Origin: a virus
Lineage: Duplodnaviria > Caudoviricetes
DNA: 47,280 nt
Virus record (IMG/VR): IMGVR_UViG_3300032225_001750
Coordinates: 1 to 47,280 of that record
Reading direction: 5' to 3' (one strand)
In this document: piece by piece, positions 21,416 to 40,238 of the stretch
How positions within the stretch are numbered: the stretch's first letter is position 1
How the letters are laid out: each line of letters opens with the position of its first letter
Translations under genes and position numbers: made by a program
Notes under the pieces: generated by a model
What the model saw: only the letters and a program-made list of their open reading frames with translations
Databases searched by the model: none
Told to the model about the DNA's origin: nothing

Positions 21416-23041
21416 TTATTCGCCCTCTCCGCGCCCTTCAATTTTCTGACTCAATGCATACAATCTTTCTTTCTGTGAAGCAGAGAAGGCAGCGGCGGCT
21501 TGGATTTTTGTAGTAAGGATGTTTATACTAAACTCAGATGCTCGGATTGTTTTTTGTCCCTCGGCATCTAGGTTATTGTAGATGTCAACCAGTTCTTTGG
21601 CTTTGGGAAGACCATTGATGTTGTAGTTGTTGCGTATGGCATCACGTTCACCATTGAGTGCATCGTATTGCGCTTGTGTAATAGTCTGTTGGTTCTCCAG
21701 GGCGGCAAATTTTGGATCCAAGGCCTGCAATTGCTGAACCGATGGATTGAGGTAGTCGTTGAAGAAGATTGTGGCCTTGTCAATGTAAACTTGTGCAGAC
21801 CCCGAAGGGGCTTTGGCTGAGTAACTAGGTACAGGTATCTTGGGATCACCCACAACTCTAGTACTAGCTGCGTCCAGTGTAGCGCGATTCACTGTATCCG
21901 ACTTGGGCACAGGAACATCTTGTTGTTTGAATGCTGTGGGTATCTTGGTATTGACCAAGTTCACAGCAAAAGCACCATCACGAACAGCACTACTAAAGCC
22001 CGCTTGTATTGCGCCTGTGGCATCACCCGGGATGGGTAAGCCTTTGGCAAACGCTTCTGCATTGGGTAGGCTTTTGGCAGCATTCAGTGCCATGCCAGCA
22101 ATACCCTGGCTACTCAAGTTCTGCACAGGTACACCCACTGCACCTAAGCCTGCCACACCTTTGGTCATGAGGTCCTGTTGTATCTGACTTTGTTTGCCTG
22201 GGTTAGCCAGTAAATCAGTTGCGCTCTTGATACCGTCTTTGCCAGTCCAGGCTGCAGGGCTTTTGATTACATTGGCAAACAAACTTGCGCCCTTGGCAGC
22301 CAAAGCCGCTACTCCGGGCTTGACAAATCCTGCTGTTTCCAACTGTTTTAGATCAAGTCCAAAAGATCCAAGACCTTTGGTGTTGCTGACAGCATCAGCG
22401 GCTTGACCTGTTAAATTCTTTGCCTGAGCCAATACGCCATTTACTTCAGGCACGCTCATGGGACCGATTCCGCTCACGGCACCAGCACCAGTGATACTGC
22501 TGGCTACTTTTGTGAAATCAGCAGTGTTGATGGGATTGGTCACAGGAAAACCGGTTATGGTTTTGTTGATGTTTTGTATTGAAGAAACTGCTGTGGATCC
22601 TTGTATCACCGCGGCATTGACCAGCGCCTTGCCTGCATTCACGGCTCCGGTGATGGCTGAAGAAACAGCACCCGAGGCCGCTGACACAGCAGGACCAATG
22701 GCCGCAGTCAATCCTGCGGCAGTTGCGGCCAACGATCCACCTAGTGCTCCTCCGGCGCTGCCAAGAGCAGTACTGATTGATCCCAATGATGCAACACTTC
22801 CCACACTGCCAAGAGCGCCAGCAATACCACCTTGTGCTTGTTGCAAGGCACTTTGAGCGCCAGCAAGACCGTCAGCCGCTTGTGAAGCCGCAGAAAGACT
22901 GTCACCGGGTTTGAATCCTACCAAAGAGCCCGTGGAATCTTGTTTTTTAAAGATCGCTTCAGCTTGATCTCGTGTGAGGCCTTCAGGACCTTTTATACTA
23001 AATGGTTTTCCATCGCTACTGGTAAATGAGAATTCAGCCAT
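21416..23041 (-). CDS. Baseplate-associated Ala/Gly-rich protein with a possible degenerate lysozyme-like domain
   Basis: 541 aa between gp5 and gp25. The central G.FG....QLE.AG.VKPG...WTGKDGI.S...L.N...Q segment resembles lysozyme-like domains attached to tail spikes. Confidence 0.5.
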   Translation of the reverse strand: MAEFSFTSSDGKPFSIKGPEGLTRDQAEAIFKKQDSTGSLVGFKPGDSLSAASQAADGLAGAQSALQQAQGGIAGALGSVGSVASLGSISTALGSAGGALGGSLAATAAGLTAAIGPAVSAASGAVSSAITGAVNAGKALVNAAVIQGSTAVSSIQNINKTITGFPVTNPINTADFTKVASSITGAGAVSGIGPMSVPEVNGVLAQAKNLTGQAADAVSNTKGLGSFGLDLKQLETAGFVKPGVAALAAKGASLFANVIKSPAAWTGKDGIKSATDLLANPGKQSQIQQDLMTKGVAGLGAVGVPVQNLSSQGIAGMALNAAKSLPNAEAFAKGLPIPGDATGAIQAGFSSAVRDGAFAVNLVNTKIPTAFKQQDVPVPKSDTVNRATLDAASTRVVGDPKIPVPSYSAKAPSGSAQVYIDKATIFFNDYLNPSVQQLQALDPKFAALENQQTITQAQYDALNGERDAIRNNYNINGLPKAKELVDIYNNLDAEGQKTIRASEFSINILTTKIQAAAAFSASQKERLYALSQKIEGRGEGE

Positions 23042-30754: not shown

Positions 30755-31651
30755 ATGACTTTACTACCCAAAGCCGCACCTCGTGTGAACTATCTCAACA
30801 ACAGAGATATCTTAAAAGAAATTCACCTCAGCAAAAACAACTACTGCTGGTTCCAGGACAGAGCAAACGATCACCAATTTGATATTATTTTGCCATCAAT
30901 AGACAAGATCAATCAACGTACCATTGCCGAAGCCCGACGCAATCGAGCAGATCGTCTCAAGCGTGAAGGCACTATTGTGGACCCTAAAAAGATACCCAAC
31001 ACAGACGTTGTTTTTCGCATTACGTGTTGGGATCACATACCCAAAGCGCCTAAGAAAATTACCAAGGCAGAAGCCAAACGTCGCAAACTAGAAGACATAC
31101 TGGACCTGGATGATGCCACCGAAGATGATCCACTAGCAGACATTGTGGATGTGCCTGTGCTGGATATGAACCATGTGCGTGTGAACTTCCCTCCGTTTGA
31201 ACACTATCGTATTGATGAAGAAAAGAAACCATTCATCGTGGGACGCAGTCATTGGAAAGGTGATCTAGCCACTGGCGAGTTTTCCAAAGATCACGGTGAC
31301 ATGACCAAGAAACTGGCCATGATGTTTATGAAACTATGCGAAAGATATGCTACAAGGAGTAACTGGCGTGGATACACATACAACGAAGAAATGCGAGGTC
31401 AAGCCTTGCTACAACTCAGTCAAATCGGACTCCAGTTTGACGAGTCAAAATCGCAGAACCCTTTTGCGTATTATACTGCCGCTATCACTAATAGTTTCAC
31501 TCGTATCTTAAATATTGAAAAGAAAAATCAAAACATACGCGATGACATACTAGAGATGAACGGACTCAATCCTTCATGGACCCGTCAGAACTCGGGCAAA
31601 CACAGCATGGCTGCCATGTCCGGACCGGTCGTAAGTAGTCTTGATGAGTAG
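30755..31651 (+). CDS. gp55: Late-transcription sigma factor, T4 gp55-like
   Basis: 298 aa. YLNN..., N(W)RGYTY.EEM...A......FD..KS.NPFAY.T....N.F.R....EKK. Lies upstream of gp47/gp46 as in T4-like phages. Confidence 0.85.
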   Translation: MTLLPKAAPRVNYLNNRDILKEIHLSKNNYCWFQDRANDHQFDIILPSIDKINQRTIAEARRNRADRLKREGTIVDPKKIPNTDVVFRITCWDHIPKAPKKITKAEAKRRKLEDILDLDDATEDDPLADIVDVPVLDMNHVRVNFPPFEHYRIDEEKKPFIVGRSHWKGDLATGEFSKDHGDMTKKLAMMFMKLCERYATRSNWRGYTYNEEMRGQALLQLSQIGLQFDESKSQNPFAYYTAAITNSFTRILNIEKKNQNIRDDILEMNGLNPSWTRQNSGKHSMAAMSGPVVSSLDE

Positions 31652-31663
31652 TATAATAGTTAG

Positions 31664-32458
31664 ATGACCAAAAAGAAAATTTTGTTTGTCGGGTGTTCAT
31701 TTACTGCCAATAGTGGGTTTACCGCAGAAAATCAACCTAGATTCCATTGGCCCTATTTACTGAGTCAGCATTATCAAACAGAATTTACCAATTCAGGATG
31801 GGGAGGATCTAGTAATGACGAAATTGTTACTCGTGTTGCCCAGGCCACTTCTAAAAATTTGTATGATCTAGTGCTGGTGCAATGGTCAGAGATTAGCAGG
31901 CAGTGGATTTATCATTCAAATCAAAATGTAGATGACCATACTATCCTCAATGCATCGGATTCTCCAAAAGGGTGGCTATGTGATAGTAACGAAGTGCAAC
32001 AGTATGCTAAATTGTACCATGCTTATTTTAATAATCCATACGCAAATCTTAGAAAATGGTTGTGTCAAGTGATAACACTGGCCGGTTATCTTGACTCCAA
32101 GAATCAACCTTATGTTTTTGTCAAAGGATTTGAAAATTATGTTTCTGCGTTTAAAAATATCAAGTATGCTCCCGAAACAGGTTTTAAAAATTTGGAAAAC
32201 CTTATAAAAAAGTTTTTAGATTTTGATAATCGTCCAGATGATTATATATTTCACAAGATTAAAGAAATACAATTTTTACTTGACAGTGCAGGGAAATCAA
32301 ACTGGTTGAATTTCAACTCTTTAAGTATCCTTGATGCAACAACTGATCTAGCAGATGATGAGATGCATCCTGGTATTGAGTCTAATTTAGAATTGGCCAA
32401 ACAACTTATCTCATACTGTGATAATAATAATCTACTAACACATGACCAATCTATTTAA
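31664..32458 (+). CDS. SGNH/GDSL hydrolase-like protein (paralog 1)
   Basis: 264 aa. GCSFT, N.G.GG.SN and C-terminal D.MHPG correspond to SGNH blocks I, II and V. Visibly AT-richer than its neighbours. Confidence 0.6.
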   Translation: MTKKKILFVGCSFTANSGFTAENQPRFHWPYLLSQHYQTEFTNSGWGGSSNDEIVTRVAQATSKNLYDLVLVQWSEISRQWIYHSNQNVDDHTILNASDSPKGWLCDSNEVQQYAKLYHAYFNNPYANLRKWLCQVITLAGYLDSKNQPYVFVKGFENYVSAFKNIKYAPETGFKNLENLIKKFLDFDNRPDDYIFHKIKEIQFLLDSAGKSNWLNFNSLSILDATTDLADDEMHPGIESNLELAKQLISYCDNNNLLTHDQSI

Positions 32459-33458
32459 AAAAGCGGCGGTGTTTACCGACATTCACTTTGGCTTGAAAAG
32501 CAACAGCGTTCAACATAACGAGGACTGCCTGAACTTTGTGAAATGGGCTGTTGCCAAGGCACGAGAGGAAGGTTGCGAAACCTGTTTGTTCCTTGGTGAC
32601 TGGCACAACAACCGTGCCAGCCTAAATATTGTTACCCTAAACTACAGCCTGCGGGCCTTGGAGCACATGAATGCAAATTTTGAGCGTGTTTATTTCATTC
32701 CTGGAAATCACGATTTATATTATCGCGATAAACGCGATATACAAAGTGTCGAATGGGCAAAGCATCTCCCCAATGTACAAATATGTAACGATTGGTTTAG
32801 TAGCGGCGATGTCGTTATTGCACCTTGGTTATGTGGCGATGACCATAAACGGATTCCCCGACTGAAAGGCCGATACATGTTTGGGCATTTTGAACTGCCC
32901 GGGTACTTGATGAATGCCATGGTAGAGATGCCGGACCACGGCGAAGTTCGACGAGAAGACTTTGGAAATTTTGAGCATGTGTTTACCGGACACTTCCACA
33001 AACGTCAAACCAAGAAAAACATCACATACATTGGCAATTGTTTTCCACATAACTACGCTGATGCCGGAGACGATGAACGTGGCCTAACCATCATTGAGTG
33101 GGGTCAAGAGCCAGTGTATCATGCCTGGCCCGATCAACCACGTTATCGTGTGCTGGGACTGGCCAGTATCATTGACAACGCACCCAACTTGCTTGCACCC
33201 GACATGCATGTTCGTGTACAATTAGATATTGAGATTTCATATGAAGAAGCCAATTTCATCAAAGAAACTTATATCCGAGACTATGGTCTAAGAGAGATGG
33301 CTTTGATCCCAAATAAAAATAGTTCCGTAGATACTGACATGGCCCCGGGTGAAGTTAAATTTGAATCAGTAGATCAAATTGTAACTGATCAGATCACCAA
33401 TATCGAGTCTGAATTCTACGACAATAAATTGTTGTTAAAAATCTATCAGAATCTATGA
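32442..33458 (+). CDS. gp47: Recombination endonuclease subunit, gp47 / SbcD / Mre11-like
   Basis: 338 aa. Metallophosphoesterase motifs DIH, GD, GNHD, GH and GHFH. Confidence 0.92.
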   Translation: MTNLFKKAAVFTDIHFGLKSNSVQHNEDCLNFVKWAVAKAREEGCETCLFLGDWHNNRASLNIVTLNYSLRALEHMNANFERVYFIPGNHDLYYRDKRDIQSVEWAKHLPNVQICNDWFSSGDVVIAPWLCGDDHKRIPRLKGRYMFGHFELPGYLMNAMVEMPDHGEVRREDFGNFEHVFTGHFHKRQTKKNITYIGNCFPHNYADAGDDERGLTIIEWGQEPVYHAWPDQPRYRVLGLASIIDNAPNLLAPDMHVRVQLDIEISYEEANFIKETYIRDYGLREMALIPNKNSSVDTDMAPGEVKFESVDQIVTDQITNIESEFYDNKLLLKIYQNL

Positions 33459-35218
33459 TAAGCATAAAAAACTTAACCGTGAAGAATTTCATGAGTGTGG
33501 GTGCGGCCACGCAAGGCATTGACTTTGACCGTACTGACTTGACTTTGGTACTGGGTGAGAACTTGGACCTAGGTGGTGATGGATCACGTAATGGTACCGG
33601 TAAGACCACAATCATCAATGCACTGAGTTATGCTTTATATGGACAGGCGTTAAGCAATATCCGTAAAGATAACCTAGTGAACAAAACCAACAGCAAGAAT
33701 ATGTTAGTGAGTTTGGACTTTAATGTTAATGGACAAGAATATAGAATTGAGCGTGGCCGCAAACCCAATGTGTTGCGTTTTTACATCAACAACGAACACC
33801 GGGTTGCCGAAGACGAAGCGCAAGGCGACAGTCGTGAAACCCAAGATGCCATTGAGCGTGTGATGAACATGAGTCATGACATGTTCAAACATGTGCTGGC
33901 CTTGAATACTTATACTGAACCGTTTTTGAGTTTGAAGGCCAATGACCAACGCACTATCATTGAGCAGTTGTTGGGTATTACTTTGTTATCAGAACGTGCT
34001 GATGCAATCAAAGAACTCAATCGCCAGACCAAAGATGCTATTCAAGCAGAAGAATTCCGCATACGTGCTGTTCAAGAAGCCAACAAGCGTATCGAAGAAC
34101 AGATTGAAAGCCTGCGTAAACGTCAACGTCTATGGATTGCCCGGCGTGATGAAGATGTGGGCAAACTAGAACAGGCCATTGCGGATCTCGAGCACATAGA
34201 TATCGATGCTGAAGTTCAAGCACATAGAGACCTAGAAGCGTTTCATGCGAAGAAAAAAGCCTTAGATGATGCCACACGTTACATTCGTCAAATTGATGCA
34301 GACGATGCCAAATTAAACAAACTGTTAGACAAACTCAAAACTGAGATTGCGGCATTAGACGCTCATAGATGTCACTCATGTGGGCAAGACTTGCATGATG
34401 ACAAGCAGGACGAACTAAAACAGGCCAAACAGGCTTTAGTGCAAGAAACAGCACTGCAACTCCTGGCCAACGACACTCAGCGTGAAGAACACTTGACCAC
34501 ACTGACACAGATCGGATTGCTAGATACAGCACCAACAGTGTTCTATGATTCGTTAGAGCAAGCCCTGAACCATCGCAACACTGTGGAAACTTTACGCAAG
34601 GACCTTGCCACTAGATCTGCAGATGCAGATCCTTACGAAGAACAGATTTCAGACATGCAAGGACAGGCTCTGCAGACGGTAACATATGATGCACTAAATG
34701 AACTCACTCGAGTGCAAGATCATCAAGACTTCCTGCTCAAACTATTGACATCAAAAGATAGTTTTGTACGCAAGAAGATCATTGATCAGAACTTGAGTTA
34801 CTTGAATGCACGTCTTACACATTACTTGGATCGTATTGGACTACCACATACTGTAAAGTTCCAGAATGACTTAACAGTAAGTATCGAAGAACTGGGTCGT
34901 GAACTTGACTTTGATAACTTATCACGTGGTGAACGCAACAGACTGATCCTTAGTATGAGCTGGGCATTCCGTGATGTTTGGGAAAGTTTATATTCACCAA
35001 TCAACTTGTTGTTTATTGACGAGTTGATTGACAATGGCTTGGACACCCAAGGTGTAGAGAACGCACTGGCCTTGCTCAAGAAGATGAGTCGAGAACGCCA
35101 CAAATCAATCTGGTTGGTTTCACATAGAGATGAACTGGCCGGGCGAGTAGAAAACATTCTCAAAGTGATCAAAGAAAACGGATTCACCAGTTACAATACG
35201 GATGTTGAGTTAGCATGA
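33455..35218 (+). CDS. gp46: Recombination ATPase subunit, gp46 / SbcC / Rad50-like
   Basis: 587 aa. Walker A NGTGKTT, coiled coil with CHSC zinc hook, LSRGE signature, Walker B LLFIDE and SH loop. Confidence 0.93.
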   Translation: MISIKNLTVKNFMSVGAATQGIDFDRTDLTLVLGENLDLGGDGSRNGTGKTTIINALSYALYGQALSNIRKDNLVNKTNSKNMLVSLDFNVNGQEYRIERGRKPNVLRFYINNEHRVAEDEAQGDSRETQDAIERVMNMSHDMFKHVLALNTYTEPFLSLKANDQRTIIEQLLGITLLSERADAIKELNRQTKDAIQAEEFRIRAVQEANKRIEEQIESLRKRQRLWIARRDEDVGKLEQAIADLEHIDIDAEVQAHRDLEAFHAKKKALDDATRYIRQIDADDAKLNKLLDKLKTEIAALDAHRCHSCGQDLHDDKQDELKQAKQALVQETALQLLANDTQREEHLTTLTQIGLLDTAPTVFYDSLEQALNHRNTVETLRKDLATRSADADPYEEQISDMQGQALQTVTYDALNELTRVQDHQDFLLKLLTSKDSFVRKKIIDQNLSYLNARLTHYLDRIGLPHTVKFQNDLTVSIEELGRELDFDNLSRGERNRLILSMSWAFRDVWESLYSPINLLFIDELIDNGLDTQGVENALALLKKMSRERHKSIWLVSHRDELAGRVENILKVIKENGFTSYNTDVELA

Positions 35219-36018
35219 TTGCCTCCACTGTTTTTCACGGGTGTTCGTTTACTGAAGGCATCGGGCTTGATTTAGAAAAGTTAGATCCCAATTTGTGGGT
35301 TAATATTCTTTATCAGTCAACAAAACAATTATCAACTACAAAATTAATCAATGCAGGCATGGGAGGAACAACTAACGAAGAAATATTTCTATCTGCATTA
35401 AACACTATAAACAACAATCCTGGATGTCAGTATCTGTTTGTTGCATTTACTGCATTTAAACGACTGCGTGTAAATCCCAGTGTTGAATTATACAACACCG
35501 ACATATTTTTAGGCAGTGGAAAAAAAATCAATGATGTCCATATCAATCCCGAAATTACAATTTCTGGAAGTTATGTTGAGAACATTCGAGATAGATTTTT
35601 TGATCTAACACATTTACACTACGATATAATAAAAATTTTACGCTATACTAAACTTATTGAACACACCGCAAGGAAATTTAATATAGAAGTTTTTTTTATT
35701 AATTCATTGATGTCTATTGACAAAGATTATTTTGTTCCAGTAACAAAATCGTCTAGACTTCCTGGCGATACTACACCATTGACTCAAGAATTGTTAAATG
35801 TTAAAACTAGAAACGATGAAGAATATTTTCAACTATACGATAAAATCCATCTGGATTATAAAAATACAAACAGTCTACTATGTAACTGGCTCAATTTAGA
35901 TCAAGGATTTAAAACAAATTTTTATTTGGATCAAGGCAACGACAATTCACACCCAGGACCAGTCAGTCACCAGGCATTTGCAAAGTTTCTGACAGAAAAA
36001 ATACAGGTTTACCTGTAA
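35215..36018 (+). CDS. SGNH/GDSL hydrolase-like protein (paralog 2)
   Basis: 267 aa. GCSFT.G, NAGMGGTTN and DNSHPG. ATGA overlap with gp46. AT-rich. Confidence 0.6.
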   Translation: MIASTVFHGCSFTEGIGLDLEKLDPNLWVNILYQSTKQLSTTKLINAGMGGTTNEEIFLSALNTINNNPGCQYLFVAFTAFKRLRVNPSVELYNTDIFLGSGKKINDVHINPEITISGSYVENIRDRFFDLTHLHYDIIKILRYTKLIEHTARKFNIEVFFINSLMSIDKDYFVPVTKSSRLPGDTTPLTQELLNVKTRNDEEYFQLYDKIHLDYKNTNSLLCNWLNLDQGFKTNFYLDQGNDNSHPGPVSHQAFAKFLTEKIQVYL

Positions 36019-36058: not shown

Positions 36059-36487
36059 ATGACATGGCTATATCAAGACACCCCAGTTGAGACGTTGCCC
36101 GAAGAGTGTGTTGGATTTGTTTACTTGATCACATGTAATCTCACTGGTCGCAAGTACATAGGCAAAAAATTAGCAAAATTTTCCAAGACAACATACAAGA
36201 CTGTAAAACAAAAAAACGGCACAAAAAAGCGCAAGAAGATACGCTCCAAGATCGATAGTGATTGGAGAGAGTACTACGGGTCAAGCCCAGAATTAACCGC
36301 AGACGTAATCAAACTAGGCACCGAAAACTTCACCAGAGAAATACTTTACTACTGCGGATCAAAATCCGAATGTAGTTATGTCGAAGCAAGAGAACAATTT
36401 GCTAGGCGAGTATTAGAATCACGAGATTATTACAACGTCCACATCCAGGTTAGGGTGCATGGTTCACACATAATAAACCGAATTTAA
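36059..36487 (+). CDS. Short stand-alone GIY-YIG family nuclease
   Basis: 142 aa. GFVYLIT...RKYIGKK, later conserved E (YVE) and YYN, and a Lys/Arg-rich insertion. No C-terminal DNA-binding domain. Confidence 0.7.
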   Translation: MTWLYQDTPVETLPEECVGFVYLITCNLTGRKYIGKKLAKFSKTTYKTVKQKNGTKKRKKIRSKIDSDWREYYGSSPELTADVIKLGTENFTREILYYCGSKSECSYVEAREQFARRVLESRDYYNVHIQVRVHGSHIINRI

Positions 36488-36489
36488 CA

Positions 36490-36818
36490 GGCAGCGATCA
36501 CGACACAGTGCTGAGTGCTATGGCTCAGCCCCATTGAGGAACGGTGAGATACCCGGTCTAGACTTGGGCGTCAAAGGCAAATTGCTAACTTAAGGCAACA
36601 AATGGTTTGGGCTCTGTGAAGAAGATACACCCCATGCTCGTAGAACTTGGATCTATATCGGGTTACTAGGGTTCCGTTGATATGTGAAGCGTGAGTAGGG
36701 GGTACCGGTCAACCGCCTCCGTGTGTGCAAACACAATCTCATTAGTATAGATGACTGCTGTCACTCGGATGATGCGCTCTCATTTTCACCGTGCATACGG
36801 TGAATTATGACCACATAA
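36490..36818 (+). ncRNA. Putative large structured non-coding RNA (unassigned family)
   Basis: ORF-free. Closing stem 36490-36500/36752-36762 (10 of 11 pairs), internal stems 36510-36529, 36630-36640/36692-36701 and 36643-36674, a GCAA tetraloop hairpin 36722-36735 and a perfect 8-bp hairpin 36785-36804. Many G-U pairs favour the + strand. Confidence 0.55.
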
Positions 36819-36860
36819 TCTGGATGATACTTAATTCAAATAATTAAAGAAAAACAATCA

Positions 36861-36904
36861 GTTGTTGAGCGTGAGCGAAAACAACAGACTTACGTAGTAA
36901 GTCT
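36861..36904. terminator. Tandem hairpins between convergent operons (likely bidirectional terminator)
   Basis: GTTGTT...AACAAC (36861-36885) and perfect AGACTTAC-GTA-GTAAGTCT (36886-36904), abutting the radical SAM stop codon. Confidence 0.5.
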
Positions 36905-38467: not shown

Positions 38468-38972
38468 TCTGAAGAAGGCCTTCAAACTCATCGAGTTGTT
38501 GTAGTATTCTATTTATATCGTCTGGTTCTTTGCCAAACAAGTCAGACGCACTGTTGGTATTTTTCTTTCTCTGTCGTATTACCCAATCCAGCAGGGGAGT
38601 TTCAAAGTGCCACAGAAATTTTCCGTTTGGTCCCCAGAGTAGTCCCCCGGGGATTTTGCAGTCATTGAACATGAAAGTACCTTGGTATTTGAACATTTCG
38701 GGCAATTGAATATTGTCGACATAGAAATCTACCAGTGTTACTGTTTGATCGGCAAGAATTTTGTTACCTACAAAGTTCACATTGGCATCTGTTTTGCCAT
38801 ATCTTTCAATTTCTAACACATGAACACCGTCAAACAAATCAAGATCAAGAGTGACTGATAACTGTGATTCAGTAAACGCAATTTCTTGTTGTACATCATC
38901 ATCTATACAAAAACGCAACAAGGGCCATCCATTGAATTCTGTAGCACAAAATTTTATAGTTAACTGATCCAT
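38457..38972 (-). CDS. Hypothetical protein, probable radical SAM partner
   Basis: 171 aa from ATG 38972 (TAATG overlap with the upstream stop). Overlaps the radical SAM start and has similar AT-rich composition. Confidence 0.6.
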   Translation of the reverse strand: MDQLTIKFCATEFNGWPLLRFCIDDDVQQEIAFTESQLSVTLDLDLFDGVHVLEIERYGKTDANVNFVGNKILADQTVTLVDFYVDNIQLPEMFKYQGTFMFNDCKIPGGLLWGPNGKFLWHFETPLLDWVIRQRKKNTNSASDLFGKEPDDINRILQQLDEFEGLLQNDS

Positions 38973-39304
38973 TAGAACTGATCCGGCCAATCTCTAAACA
39001 ATGCGTGTTGAATATTACCTGAAACGAATTGATTAAAACTTTTATGTTTGACTTCGAGTTCGCCTTCAAGTGGTGCTACTCGTTTGAATGCTGAATCCAT
39101 TTGACCCATGTCTTTGAACTCCATGATGATCATCCACTCAGGCATGTCGGCTATGCTACGGAATCCCATCTTACATCTTGTGATTCTGTAAGATTCCATC
39201 TTGCCTTCTGAGATCAAATGATCAAAGAAACTCTTCATTCCGTTGACCCAGTCTAAGTCTGAGATGTCGCCTTCTTTATCGGCCCATATTGTGTATAAAT
39301 CCAT
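38972..39304 (-). CDS. DUF6614-like small alpha/beta barrel protein
   Basis: 110 aa. Y.IW.D....SD.......F...L...G....RI.R.K.GF......E..I..EF....Q...AF..V.......E..H............ALFRDWPD recalled as DUF6614-like. Confidence 0.55.
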   Translation of the reverse strand: MDLYTIWADKEGDISDLDWVNGMKSFFDHLISEGKMESYRITRCKMGFRSIADMPEWMIIMEFKDMGQMDSAFKRVAPLEGELEVKHKSFNQFVSGNIQHALFRDWPDQF

Positions 39305-39306
39305 AG

Positions 39307-39741
39307 TTACTCCAGTGGTCCTAGTAGTTCAAATCCGTCTATTTGAGATTTGTACAGGTGTGCTTGTTCAAGATACAGGTACTTGAATCCCCGTGCCTTG
39401 TAGATAGCACACTCTGTTTTCATTGTTTCAATTCCCAGACGCAGTCCTGGTTTGTGATAGTTCCATGCAAATTGATCGCATAAGGCATTCTCGTTGTCGT
39501 AGCGTCGAATCAAACTGAACGCCACAAGATCCATGCCATCATAGTAACCAAGCACATCAGTAGCAGGATCCAGATACCTTGAATCAAACATGGGCATGAC
39601 ACTGGCAAAACGTTTGTGTTGACAGTATTCTCTGTAGATGTTGTTCAGCACTCCTATGTCGGGCATGCGAAGATGCTGCCACTTGACTGATTCTGTGTAT
39701 TGAGTTTGACTCAAATCAATTCTAGCAAACTGATATGTCAT
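39307..39741 (-). CDS. GNAT-fold protein resembling the C-terminal domain of Arg/Leu-tRNA-protein transferases (ATE1/Bpt)
   Basis: 144 aa from ATG 39741 (ATGA overlap). YY....LVAFS......., F.W.Y..P.L.LG......E....K..G..YLYL.....YK....FE parallels the ATE_C pattern. Confidence 0.55.
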   Translation of the reverse strand: MTYQFARIDLSQTQYTESVKWQHLRMPDIGVLNNIYREYCQHKRFASVMPMFDSRYLDPATDVLGYYDGMDLVAFSLIRRYDNENALCDQFAWNYHKPGLRLGIETMKTECAIYKARGFKYLYLEQAHLYKSQIDGFELLGPLE

Positions 39742-40238
39742 CTTGGATCCTGTCTGTGATGGAACAGGCCTTGCAAGTATTGTTCTGGCCACCCATGATA
39801 AAATCCTCGGGAGGCCATTTGCTGGGCTTTGGTATTGAGATCACTCAATCCTTGTATCAATGCCAACGCATAAGTTCCTTGATTCATTGAGACACCGTTT
39901 ACAATTTCGGGATCCGCAGGGTGATCTTCCATGGCAATCAAGTCTCTGGGCACAAGTGTTTCTTGATTAGCAAGTTCTATACTGTTGGCAAATAACTCAC
40001 GTGACCATTCCGCAGGATCGTACGCATAGATCACAACTTCGTAGTTGTCCATGCCGTATCTTGCTCGATTCTTTAGATCATACAAGGGATCCATACCTAG
40101 AAACACACCATATGTCTTTTTGAGTCTTGCTGACCGTGCAAACGGACAAGGAGGAAAACCTCCTAGACTGGGGTGTGGAACTTCTACAAAGTTCTTGATC
40201 CAGGATTCTATATCTTTTTTAACTTGTTCCAGTTCCAT
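39738..40238 (-). CDS. DUF1415-like protein
   Basis: 166 aa. W...FVE.......CPFA, DHP and L..Q....L......L...G.Y..W motifs. Confidence 0.5.
   Translation of the reverse strand: MELEQVKKDIESWIKNFVEVPHPSLGGFPPCPFARSARLKKTYGVFLGMDPLYDLKNRARYGMDNYEVVIYAYDPAEWSRELFANSIELANQETLVPRDLIAMEDHPADPEIVNGVSMNQGTYALALIQGLSDLNTKAQQMASRGFYHGWPEQYLQGLFHHRQDPR

Follow-up and report, generated by a model that had tools for sequence, protein, structure and literature searches.

The 417-nt gap (36488–36904) behind a small nuclease gene in the 47,280-nt stretch of viral DNA analysed here (the window) encodes a real conserved non-coding RNA, and the 3′ module of this RNA carries two copies of a variable 7-mer that are almost always identical within a locus. 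We consider it an evenly balanced question whether this RNA is a ColE1-like pre-primer, in which repeat 1 pairs with the template at repeat 2 and sets up an R-loop origin. A replication origin had been listed among the alternatives in a preliminary description of this DNA, and it coincides with our preferred reading, for and against which the chances are likewise equal.

Genomic Context and the Nuclease Gene

The window is part of the genome of a T4-like jumbo phage. Near-complete relatives of this phage measure 332–347 kb, the closest cultured gp46 proteins are those of PA5oct-like phages, Phosso, Atu_ph07 and GAP32/RaK2-like phages, and portal and baseplate genes are also found in the window. 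The genes for the late sigma factor gp55, gp47 (32442–33458) and gp46 (33455–35218) form an operon on the plus strand (30755–35218), and the RNA lies at the end of it, facing a convergent gene. Two low-GC inserts (35215–36018 and 31664–32458), one with a weak DUF6071 match, break up the operon, and in relatives, genes similar to these inserts sit between the nuclease and the RNA. A DUF6614 gene with two small partners was also noted on the minus strand of the window (38972–40238).

The 142-aa GIY-YIG reading frame reported at 36059–36487 (plus strand) was confirmed as a SegE-like domain (PF19835, E 1.7e-32). It had been described as a catalytic domain with a basic insertion and no DNA-binding tail, which agrees with the structure model (pLDDT 89.8) of a GIY-YIG core plus a long basic β-hairpin, the latter being the insertion. 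Both the superfamily fold and the catalytic motif are present, with the invariant residues Y22, Y33, G35, E109 and N126; Foldseek against the PDB returned I-TevI at a probability of 0.98 and nothing below E 0.001, and a PDB sequence search gave a single weak match. The protein thus has its fold and invariant residues in common with the SegE-like family (PF19835, phrog_447) and the catalytic domain of I-TevI but differs from them in the missing tail, in the long hairpin and in a gene that alternates with PD-(D/E)XK and EndoVII genes. It should be noted that phrog_447 is called "NAD synthetase" in PHROGs and in many GenBank records, which the Pfam match and the fold mark as a mis-annotation.

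The alternative gene in this slot at RNA loci encodes a PDDEXK_15/RusA-like resolvase. Three genomes that are 95–100% complete (G006–G008) carry the GIY-YIG gene and no PD-(D/E)XK resolvase, and the opposite holds for G001 (85%). In cultured relatives, EndoVII occupies the slot in GAP32 and Turkey5, and a RusA-like gene does so in PA5oct and Phosso; that of Atu_ph07 holds neither and shows no matching gap. Because the GIY-YIG gene alternates with PD-(D/E)XK and EndoVII genes, a resolvase-like job can be expected for it, and it is probably the junction-resolving nuclease of the operon, among three unrelated nucleases that use the slot. Strict replacement is weakened by G008, the one record of five searched that has an EndoVII domain, since it carries the GIY-YIG gene too.

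Structure of the RNA

The absence of any open reading frame of at least 60 aa from 36488–36904, stated in the preliminary description, was confirmed, and covariation bore out its proposal of a structured RNA in the gap, which proved to be conserved. Covariation is the support on which this rests because the folding energy of 36488–36825 is ordinary (z −0.32, not above chance). In an alignment (A1) of 39 sequences of type A, the type to which the window belongs, the corrected fold comprises 14 helices, two pseudoknots and 75 pairs, is 96.0% paired (slid controls, 35–46%) and contains 34 pairs changed on both sides, a value as high as which occurred in 0 of 500 shuffles; the fold came from unsupervised covariation on the same alignment that scored it, and the shuffles ignore kinship. 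G-U pairs outnumber A-C combinations (320 versus 25 cells) and 18 of 20 variant loops are of the GNRA type, indicating that it is the plus strand that folds, as RNA.

The sequence words quoted earlier were all found at their coordinates. The 41 pairs built from them are 78.6% paired in the same 39 sequences, with support mainly from the hairpin at 36510–36529, where both partners have changed in 6 of 7 pairs; this alignment also upholds the GNRA hairpin and the G-U-rich hairpin (stem 36644–36664). Other proposed helices fared worse. The closing helix (36490–36500/36752–36762) is only 57–64% paired, the GAGG-CGGT/ACCG-CCTC helix has zero pairs changed on both sides, as has the GAGAT/ATCTC pseudoknot at 80% pairing, and CCCC-TGCTCG/TGAGTA-GGGG has one double change among 10 pairs. 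The RNA is pseudoknotted, as had been suspected, but at 36651–36657/36746–36752 and 36676–36680/36709–36713. As for the trailing hairpins, the one at 36785–36804 stands, while that at 36805–36818 lies over a variable spacer and is unconserved. The direct repeats at 36764–36773 and 36819–36828 had been overlooked.

The structured RNA occupies positions 36490–36830 of the plus strand (ends approximate). Its variable 5′ domain (36502–36572) is composed of the helix 36502–36504/36570–36572, the hairpin 36510–36529, the helix 36530–36533/36565–36568 and a hairpin at 36539–36558 with a loop that we take to be T-loop-like. Covariation supports the two hairpins that follow, at 36582–36598 and 36608–36634 (inner pair 36615–36616/36628–36629). 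Then comes a long G-U-rich stem (36636–36672), which covaries among copies within one cultured genome and whose loop (36651–36657) pairs with 36746–36752 as pseudoknot 2. The conserved core (36674–36752) contains pseudoknot 1, the helices 36692–36695/36738–36741 and 36698–36702/36716–36720, and the GNRA hairpin (36722–36735). Pseudoknot 1 (36676–36680/36709–36713, 5 bp) is invariant inside type A; over a set of 185 cores, all its bases pair in 159, through 12 compensating sequence pairs.

Relation to Catalogued RNAs

In Rfam searches, the window matched no family at the gathering threshold, and at E 10 it gave three chance hits (E 6–9), none of them to RF01718 (Polynucleobacter-1), which relatives of type B did match. 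In these, RF01718 is the 5′ domain (120 and 80 bits), and it takes the place of the variable 5′ domain of type A. A type-B profile matches the window at E 2.7e-27 through the core and the repeat module, which the two types have in common. The RF01718 model (141 positions), in contrast, leaves out the core, both pseudoknots and the repeats, and the type-A 5′ domain of the window does not match it. Part of the family is already catalogued as RF01718, which covers the 5′ third of the relatives, with the core, the pseudoknots and the 3′ module outside that model; the window subtype lies beyond Rfam.

The one paper found to name RF01718 gives it with 16 members and as probably cis-regulatory, without a function (Weinberg et al., 2010; PMC2864571), and none has been assigned since 2010. 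No published account of the whole RNA was found in a search that took in few subscription journals. A tRNA/tmRNA search of the window gave nothing, and likeness to FMN-riboswitch, box C/D, RNase P and group I/II motifs found no support in Rfam.

Repeats Locked in cis

Repeat 1 (36764–36773) consists of CTC and the 7-mer at 36767–36773, and repeat 2 (36819–36828), the putative template-capture site and likely 3′ end of the RNA, of TCT and the 7-mer at 36822–36828; between them on the plus strand stands the 8-bp hairpin 36785–36804. With anchors that ignored the 7-mer, the 7-mers were identical inside the locus in 126 of 132 distinct modules, and 2 more were mis-anchored. A larger set of 164 modules gave 147 identical 7-mers, 4 single mismatches and 13 mis-anchored cases, with a further 92 loci showing no module under its anchor, many through truncation or a weak hairpin. 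Fourteen different 7-mers occur. On a 125-leaf tree of the RNA body, 58 changes fall on one repeat and 56 on the other, with 59 joint changes; block exchange could inflate this count, but one spacer background carries four of the 7-mers.

The repeats also differ between copies of one genome, each copy being self-matched. Examples are the G001 copies (AGATGAA and GCATGAA), one of four copies in the genome G011, two PA5oct paralogues, and the GAP32 copy at 99 kb, in which two positions are changed in both repeats. Since copies in one genome differ and yet match themselves, the constraint acts in cis; a shared protein would not require this, whereas pairing between repeat 1 and the complementary DNA strand at repeat 2 would.

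A search for a variable guide-like segment beside a conserved scaffold had been suggested. In the phage genomes searched, the variable 7-mer matches only its twin 55 nt away and no separate target, and its frequency in its own genome is neither raised nor lowered. No third complementary strand was found in the RNA (13 versus 7.7 of 130) or in the aligned genomes, where one G006/G007 site was not repeated in other pairs. Comparison of protein residues with the 7-mer gave top values of 0.27, 0.37 and 0.19 against permutation maxima of 0.29, 0.29 and 0.30, and we read the single excess, at N-terminal positions, as kinship. With no third strand and no tracking by the protein, pairing with complementary DNA remains as the candidate. 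At positions +1 to +9, the mismatches are mostly (137 versus 5) wobbles of the kind that would let repeat 1 pair with the template of repeat 2; 111 of the 137 are one near-fixed difference at +8, and −2, −3 and +11 lean the opposite way. Pairing of spacer with spacer, good in some lineages and weak overall, was dropped.

Copies, Cultured Relatives and Transcripts

The G011 genome carries copies at 34.9, 165.6, 233.0 and 311.2 kb, behind sigma70-type promoters, and one of them follows a resolvase gene and an RNase H gene. Around each copy (L409–L412), some 1.3 kb of non-coding DNA is conserved, including tandem promoters and, on either side, arrays of short direct repeats; the arrays are iteron-like, and the whole unit has seemingly been duplicated around the genome. 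The gap element of Turkey5 matches 72 cultured records, in 4–5 places in most of those listed; the E. coli phages 121Q, PBECO4 and Sharanji (host listed as K-12 MG1655) have it in 4 places each. A descriptor of pseudoknot 1 plus the module, written after both sets had been seen, matched GAP32 at exactly five places and had no hit in 10 shuffles. All five are on one strand, 53–84 kb apart, with extended −10 promoters upstream. In a minimum-gap test, the spacing of the copies is significant in GAP32 (P 0.0045) and falls short of significance in Turkey5 and G011 (0.053 each).

Sequence profiles from the lake phages do not match the copies in cultured phages, so the link between the two sets is one of architecture and gene order; nor did blastn give a match, either for the window RNA in cultured phages or for its relatives in plasmids. 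No promoter was found before the window's own copy, and a single copy was detected in each of three near-complete freshwater genomes.

The descriptor misses PA5oct. In this phage, two paralogues of the gap that adjoins the resolvase lie at 12.9 and 246 kb. The latter is ncRNA004, an ORF-free plus-strand transcript accounting for 0.02–0.08% of phage reads (Lood et al., 2020; PMC7318152, values of Table 1 and of the passages cited), and its listed end, 246,734, is the last base of the second repeat, a single post-hoc case with the end taken from read coverage. As a paralogue of the element in the gp46–resolvase slot, transcribed from the plus strand and with the same end module, ncRNA004 resembles the window RNA; the likeness is one of short motifs and architecture, with no significant alignment. 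By eye, family-like short words without significant alignment were also seen in ncRNA002 and ncRNA003 of PA5oct (21,951–22,401 and 103,065–103,368; L495). Pseudomonas phage HRDY3 has a 630-nt gap (L494:2310–2940) with GCGAAGC-type mini-hairpin words and direct repeats and without the RNA core.

The family extends beyond jumbo phages, since GC-rich homologues lie near serine recombinases with no GIY-YIG gene. One, in the 39-kb temperate phage G012 (L334), is accompanied by ParA, a resolvase and an initiator-like gene, and another (L413) sits beside a serine recombinase-like frame on a metagenome contig. A pattern search for such homologues gave 1 true locus in 80. Of five matches in a GTDB scan, three were chance and two were phage contigs binned in a MAG; the two (L402 and L404; 148 and 183 kb) are jumbo-phage contigs in a Haliscomenobacter MAG, which is either a hint at the host or misbinning.

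Contigs from RNA libraries (7 runs) cover the gene and the RNA, one of them spanning the stop codon; their ends differ, and, being possibly of DNA origin, they do not prove a transcript. One chimeric contig in X1 was taken as an artefact.

A Possible R-Loop Origin

The surroundings of the RNA have an origin-like anatomy, with the element's own sigma70-type promoters, 4–5 dispersed copies, downstream AT-rich DNA, C(GNA)G hairpins and a word resembling one in ColE1. In the window, repeat 2 is followed by an AT-rich stretch (36829–36861), a candidate unwinding element, then on the plus strand by the word GAGCG-N-AGCGA (36867–36878), like that downstream of the ColE1 origin region, and by an 8-bp hairpin with a C(GTA)G triloop (36886–36904), which is probably a single-stranded DNA hairpin and scores also as a minus-strand terminator. 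Hairpins with C(GNA)G triloops have a DNA-specific stability. This word or a related one is present in 87 of 137 loci, compared with 18 of 137 in an upstream control that is overestimated for short loci, and C(GNA)G hairpins of at least 7 bp are present in 77 of 128. An upstream promoter and a downstream AT-rich element occur together at the G011 and GAP32 copies, and an RNase H gene lies beside the element in G011 and Phosso.

According to the mechanism that we propose, the window RNA would be transcribed from the gp55–gp47–gp46 operon, and repeat 1 of the growing RNA would capture the template DNA strand at repeat 2. A lasting R-loop would form and likely start replication of the phage DNA. 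The 3′ end of the RNA would arise at or near repeat 2 through RNase H, termination or the RNA itself, and helicase and primase may be loaded at the AT-rich stretch and, on the displaced strand, at the DNA-type hairpins.

Initiation at ColE1 depends on base pairing between an rG stretch in RNA II and a dC stretch in the template, after which RNase H produces the primer and the primosome is loaded on the displaced strand; a T4 origin is described as combining a promoter with an unwinding element (for ColE1, the passages cited from PMC4412123, PMC5043065 and PMC3167613; for T4, that from PMC4412123). The window family resembles the former in a promoter-driven structured RNA, a putative template-pairing stretch, RNase H, a candidate single-strand signal downstream and the word GAGCG-N-AGCGA, present in both (ColE1 L406:1332). 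It differs in that there is no sequence homology, in that the capture sequence would be a variable 7-mer and not a G run, and in being phage-borne and multicopy. With T4 oriF/oriG it has in common a T4-like phage, several sites that would be primed by transcription, and the promoter with an AT-rich element; between these two, unlike oriF/oriG, it has a conserved folded RNA of 300–600 nt with matched repeats. If the reading holds, the element works like a ColE1/T4 R-loop origin while being a member of neither by sequence. Sequence likeness to RNA II was in fact nil (best E 0.29), and no match to RNAI of Rfam was obtained.

Counting against an origin are this lack of homology to RNA II, the absence of a promoter before the window's own copy, the RNA-library contigs that do not prove a transcript, the single copy detected in each of the three lake genomes, the initiator-like protein that the phage G012 has of its own besides the element, and the GC skew, which gives no origin signal. 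The literature searched does not treat the initiation of replication in T4-like jumbo phages.

The strongest rival, unlikely in our estimate, is that repeat 1 invades the RNA–DNA hybrid at repeat 2 solely to end or release the transcript, the free RNA being a decoy, scaffold or regulator. It explains the cis-locked repeats equally well, fits the end of ncRNA004 at repeat 2 and the copies with their own promoters, and would account for a fold more complex than a primer obviously needs. It leaves unexplained the AT-rich tail, the DNA-type hairpins, the ColE1-like word, the RNase H neighbours and the dispersal of the copies, and the small share of phage reads due to ncRNA004, just 0.02–0.08% in the values cited above, also speaks against it.

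The R-loop reading can be carried further, to a form that we regard as improbable. Giant phages would then possess a widespread family of protein-free programmable replication starters, in which a freely variable 7–9-nt guide on the doubly pseudoknotted RNA captures its own template strand and the RNA may cut itself for the primer end. The 4–5 copies would fire several origins simultaneously in a 350-kb genome, and the 7-mer would be a private address, so that rewriting both repeats would retarget the element.

Other Explanations of the Repeats

Direct repeats flanking a hairpin are prone to slippage, and it is conceivable, at a rather low likelihood, that the repeats are kept alike by recurrent slippage, or by templated mutation, across the hairpin and that the function of the RNA is unrelated. 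The arrangement in the window is of this kind, and the 4 single-base mismatches are consistent with it, but the neighbouring fixed differences (CTC versus TCT, and G versus A at +8) have never been levelled. No joint that skips the hairpin was seen in the RNA-library contigs, whose cover is thin, and the arrangement persists from the lake phages to GAP32 and the GC-rich elements.

A ribozyme core that cuts its own 3′ module, with the repeats as the substrate or as makers of the primer end, appears to us still more doubtful. The compact core, the two pseudoknots and the invariant unpaired bases would suit it; against it are the lack of an internal guide complementary to the 7-mer, of any Rfam ribozyme match, and of spliced joints in the same thinly covering contigs.

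Least likely of all is the ribonucleoprotein of nuclease and RNA, which the preliminary description had put forward and in which the 7-mers would be twin guides: the long basic hairpin of the protein and the tight linkage in the window clade speak for it, but each partner occurs alone, other resolvase families fill the slot, and the 7-mers, with no third matching site and no bias in frequency, do not behave as guides. The linkage was counted from both sides. Of 80 gene-centred loci, 68 extend 600 nt downstream, and the RNA is present in every one of these, in 56 cases within 120 nt (38 of type A, 20 of type B and 10 of type C among the 68), as judged with profiles built partly from those same loci. 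Starting from the RNA, the gene is present in 61 of 70 loci with 1 kb upstream and absent in 9; a second pattern gave 47 loci with GIY-YIG, 17 with PD-(D/E)XK and 12 with neither, these 76 overlapping the 70 and taking in a few chance matches. Across the loci and genomes compared, the linkage is thus not obligate: the four G011 copies are without the GIY-YIG gene, and cultured T4-like phages with a homologous nuclease have 148, 87 and 28 nt behind the gene, leaving no room for the RNA. Co-evolution of the protein with the RNA scaffold was not observed either, in that a protein of 100% identity is found before two very different RNA types, A and C, and the 7-mer differs in 8 of 13 protein pairs with at least 95% identity.

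RNA-guided systems such as OMEGA/HEARO (IscB, TnpB) and TIGR-Tas have a small nuclease gene beside a structured RNA. The window family is similar in that adjacency and in the two similar units within the RNA, but its linkage is not obligate, its 7-mer tracked no target in the phage genomes searched, and neither a Nop-domain gene nor a reverse transcriptase gene, as expected of TIGR-Tas, retron or DRT systems, was found in any of five records (three of them at least 95% complete). The nuclease gene is an exchangeable neighbour, and its protein is probably no subunit of the RNA.

At a single site behind nucleases that are 92–100% identical (L008 versus L009, L005/L006, L002), the RNA may be of type A, B or C, a pattern resembling that of exchangeable alleles or of incompatibility groups. 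Most loci have one AGGCA at the start of the RNA, which possibly signals initiation or processing; tandem AGGCAC repeats were seen upstream of the RNA in L098, L130 and L158, from which the nuclease gene is absent.

Implications

For the very large unnamed GIY-YIG family, the slot behind gp46 suggests a job, that of a stand-in for Holliday-junction resolvases. Even without an origin function, direct repeats locked in cis inside so large an RNA would call for a mechanistic explanation. If the origin reading is true, one RNA family equips hundreds of lake phages, as well as PA5oct and the Asteriusvirus/GAP32-like phages, with dispersed origins, and does so by a base-pairing rule that would be open to any sequence, where ColE1 needs a G run.
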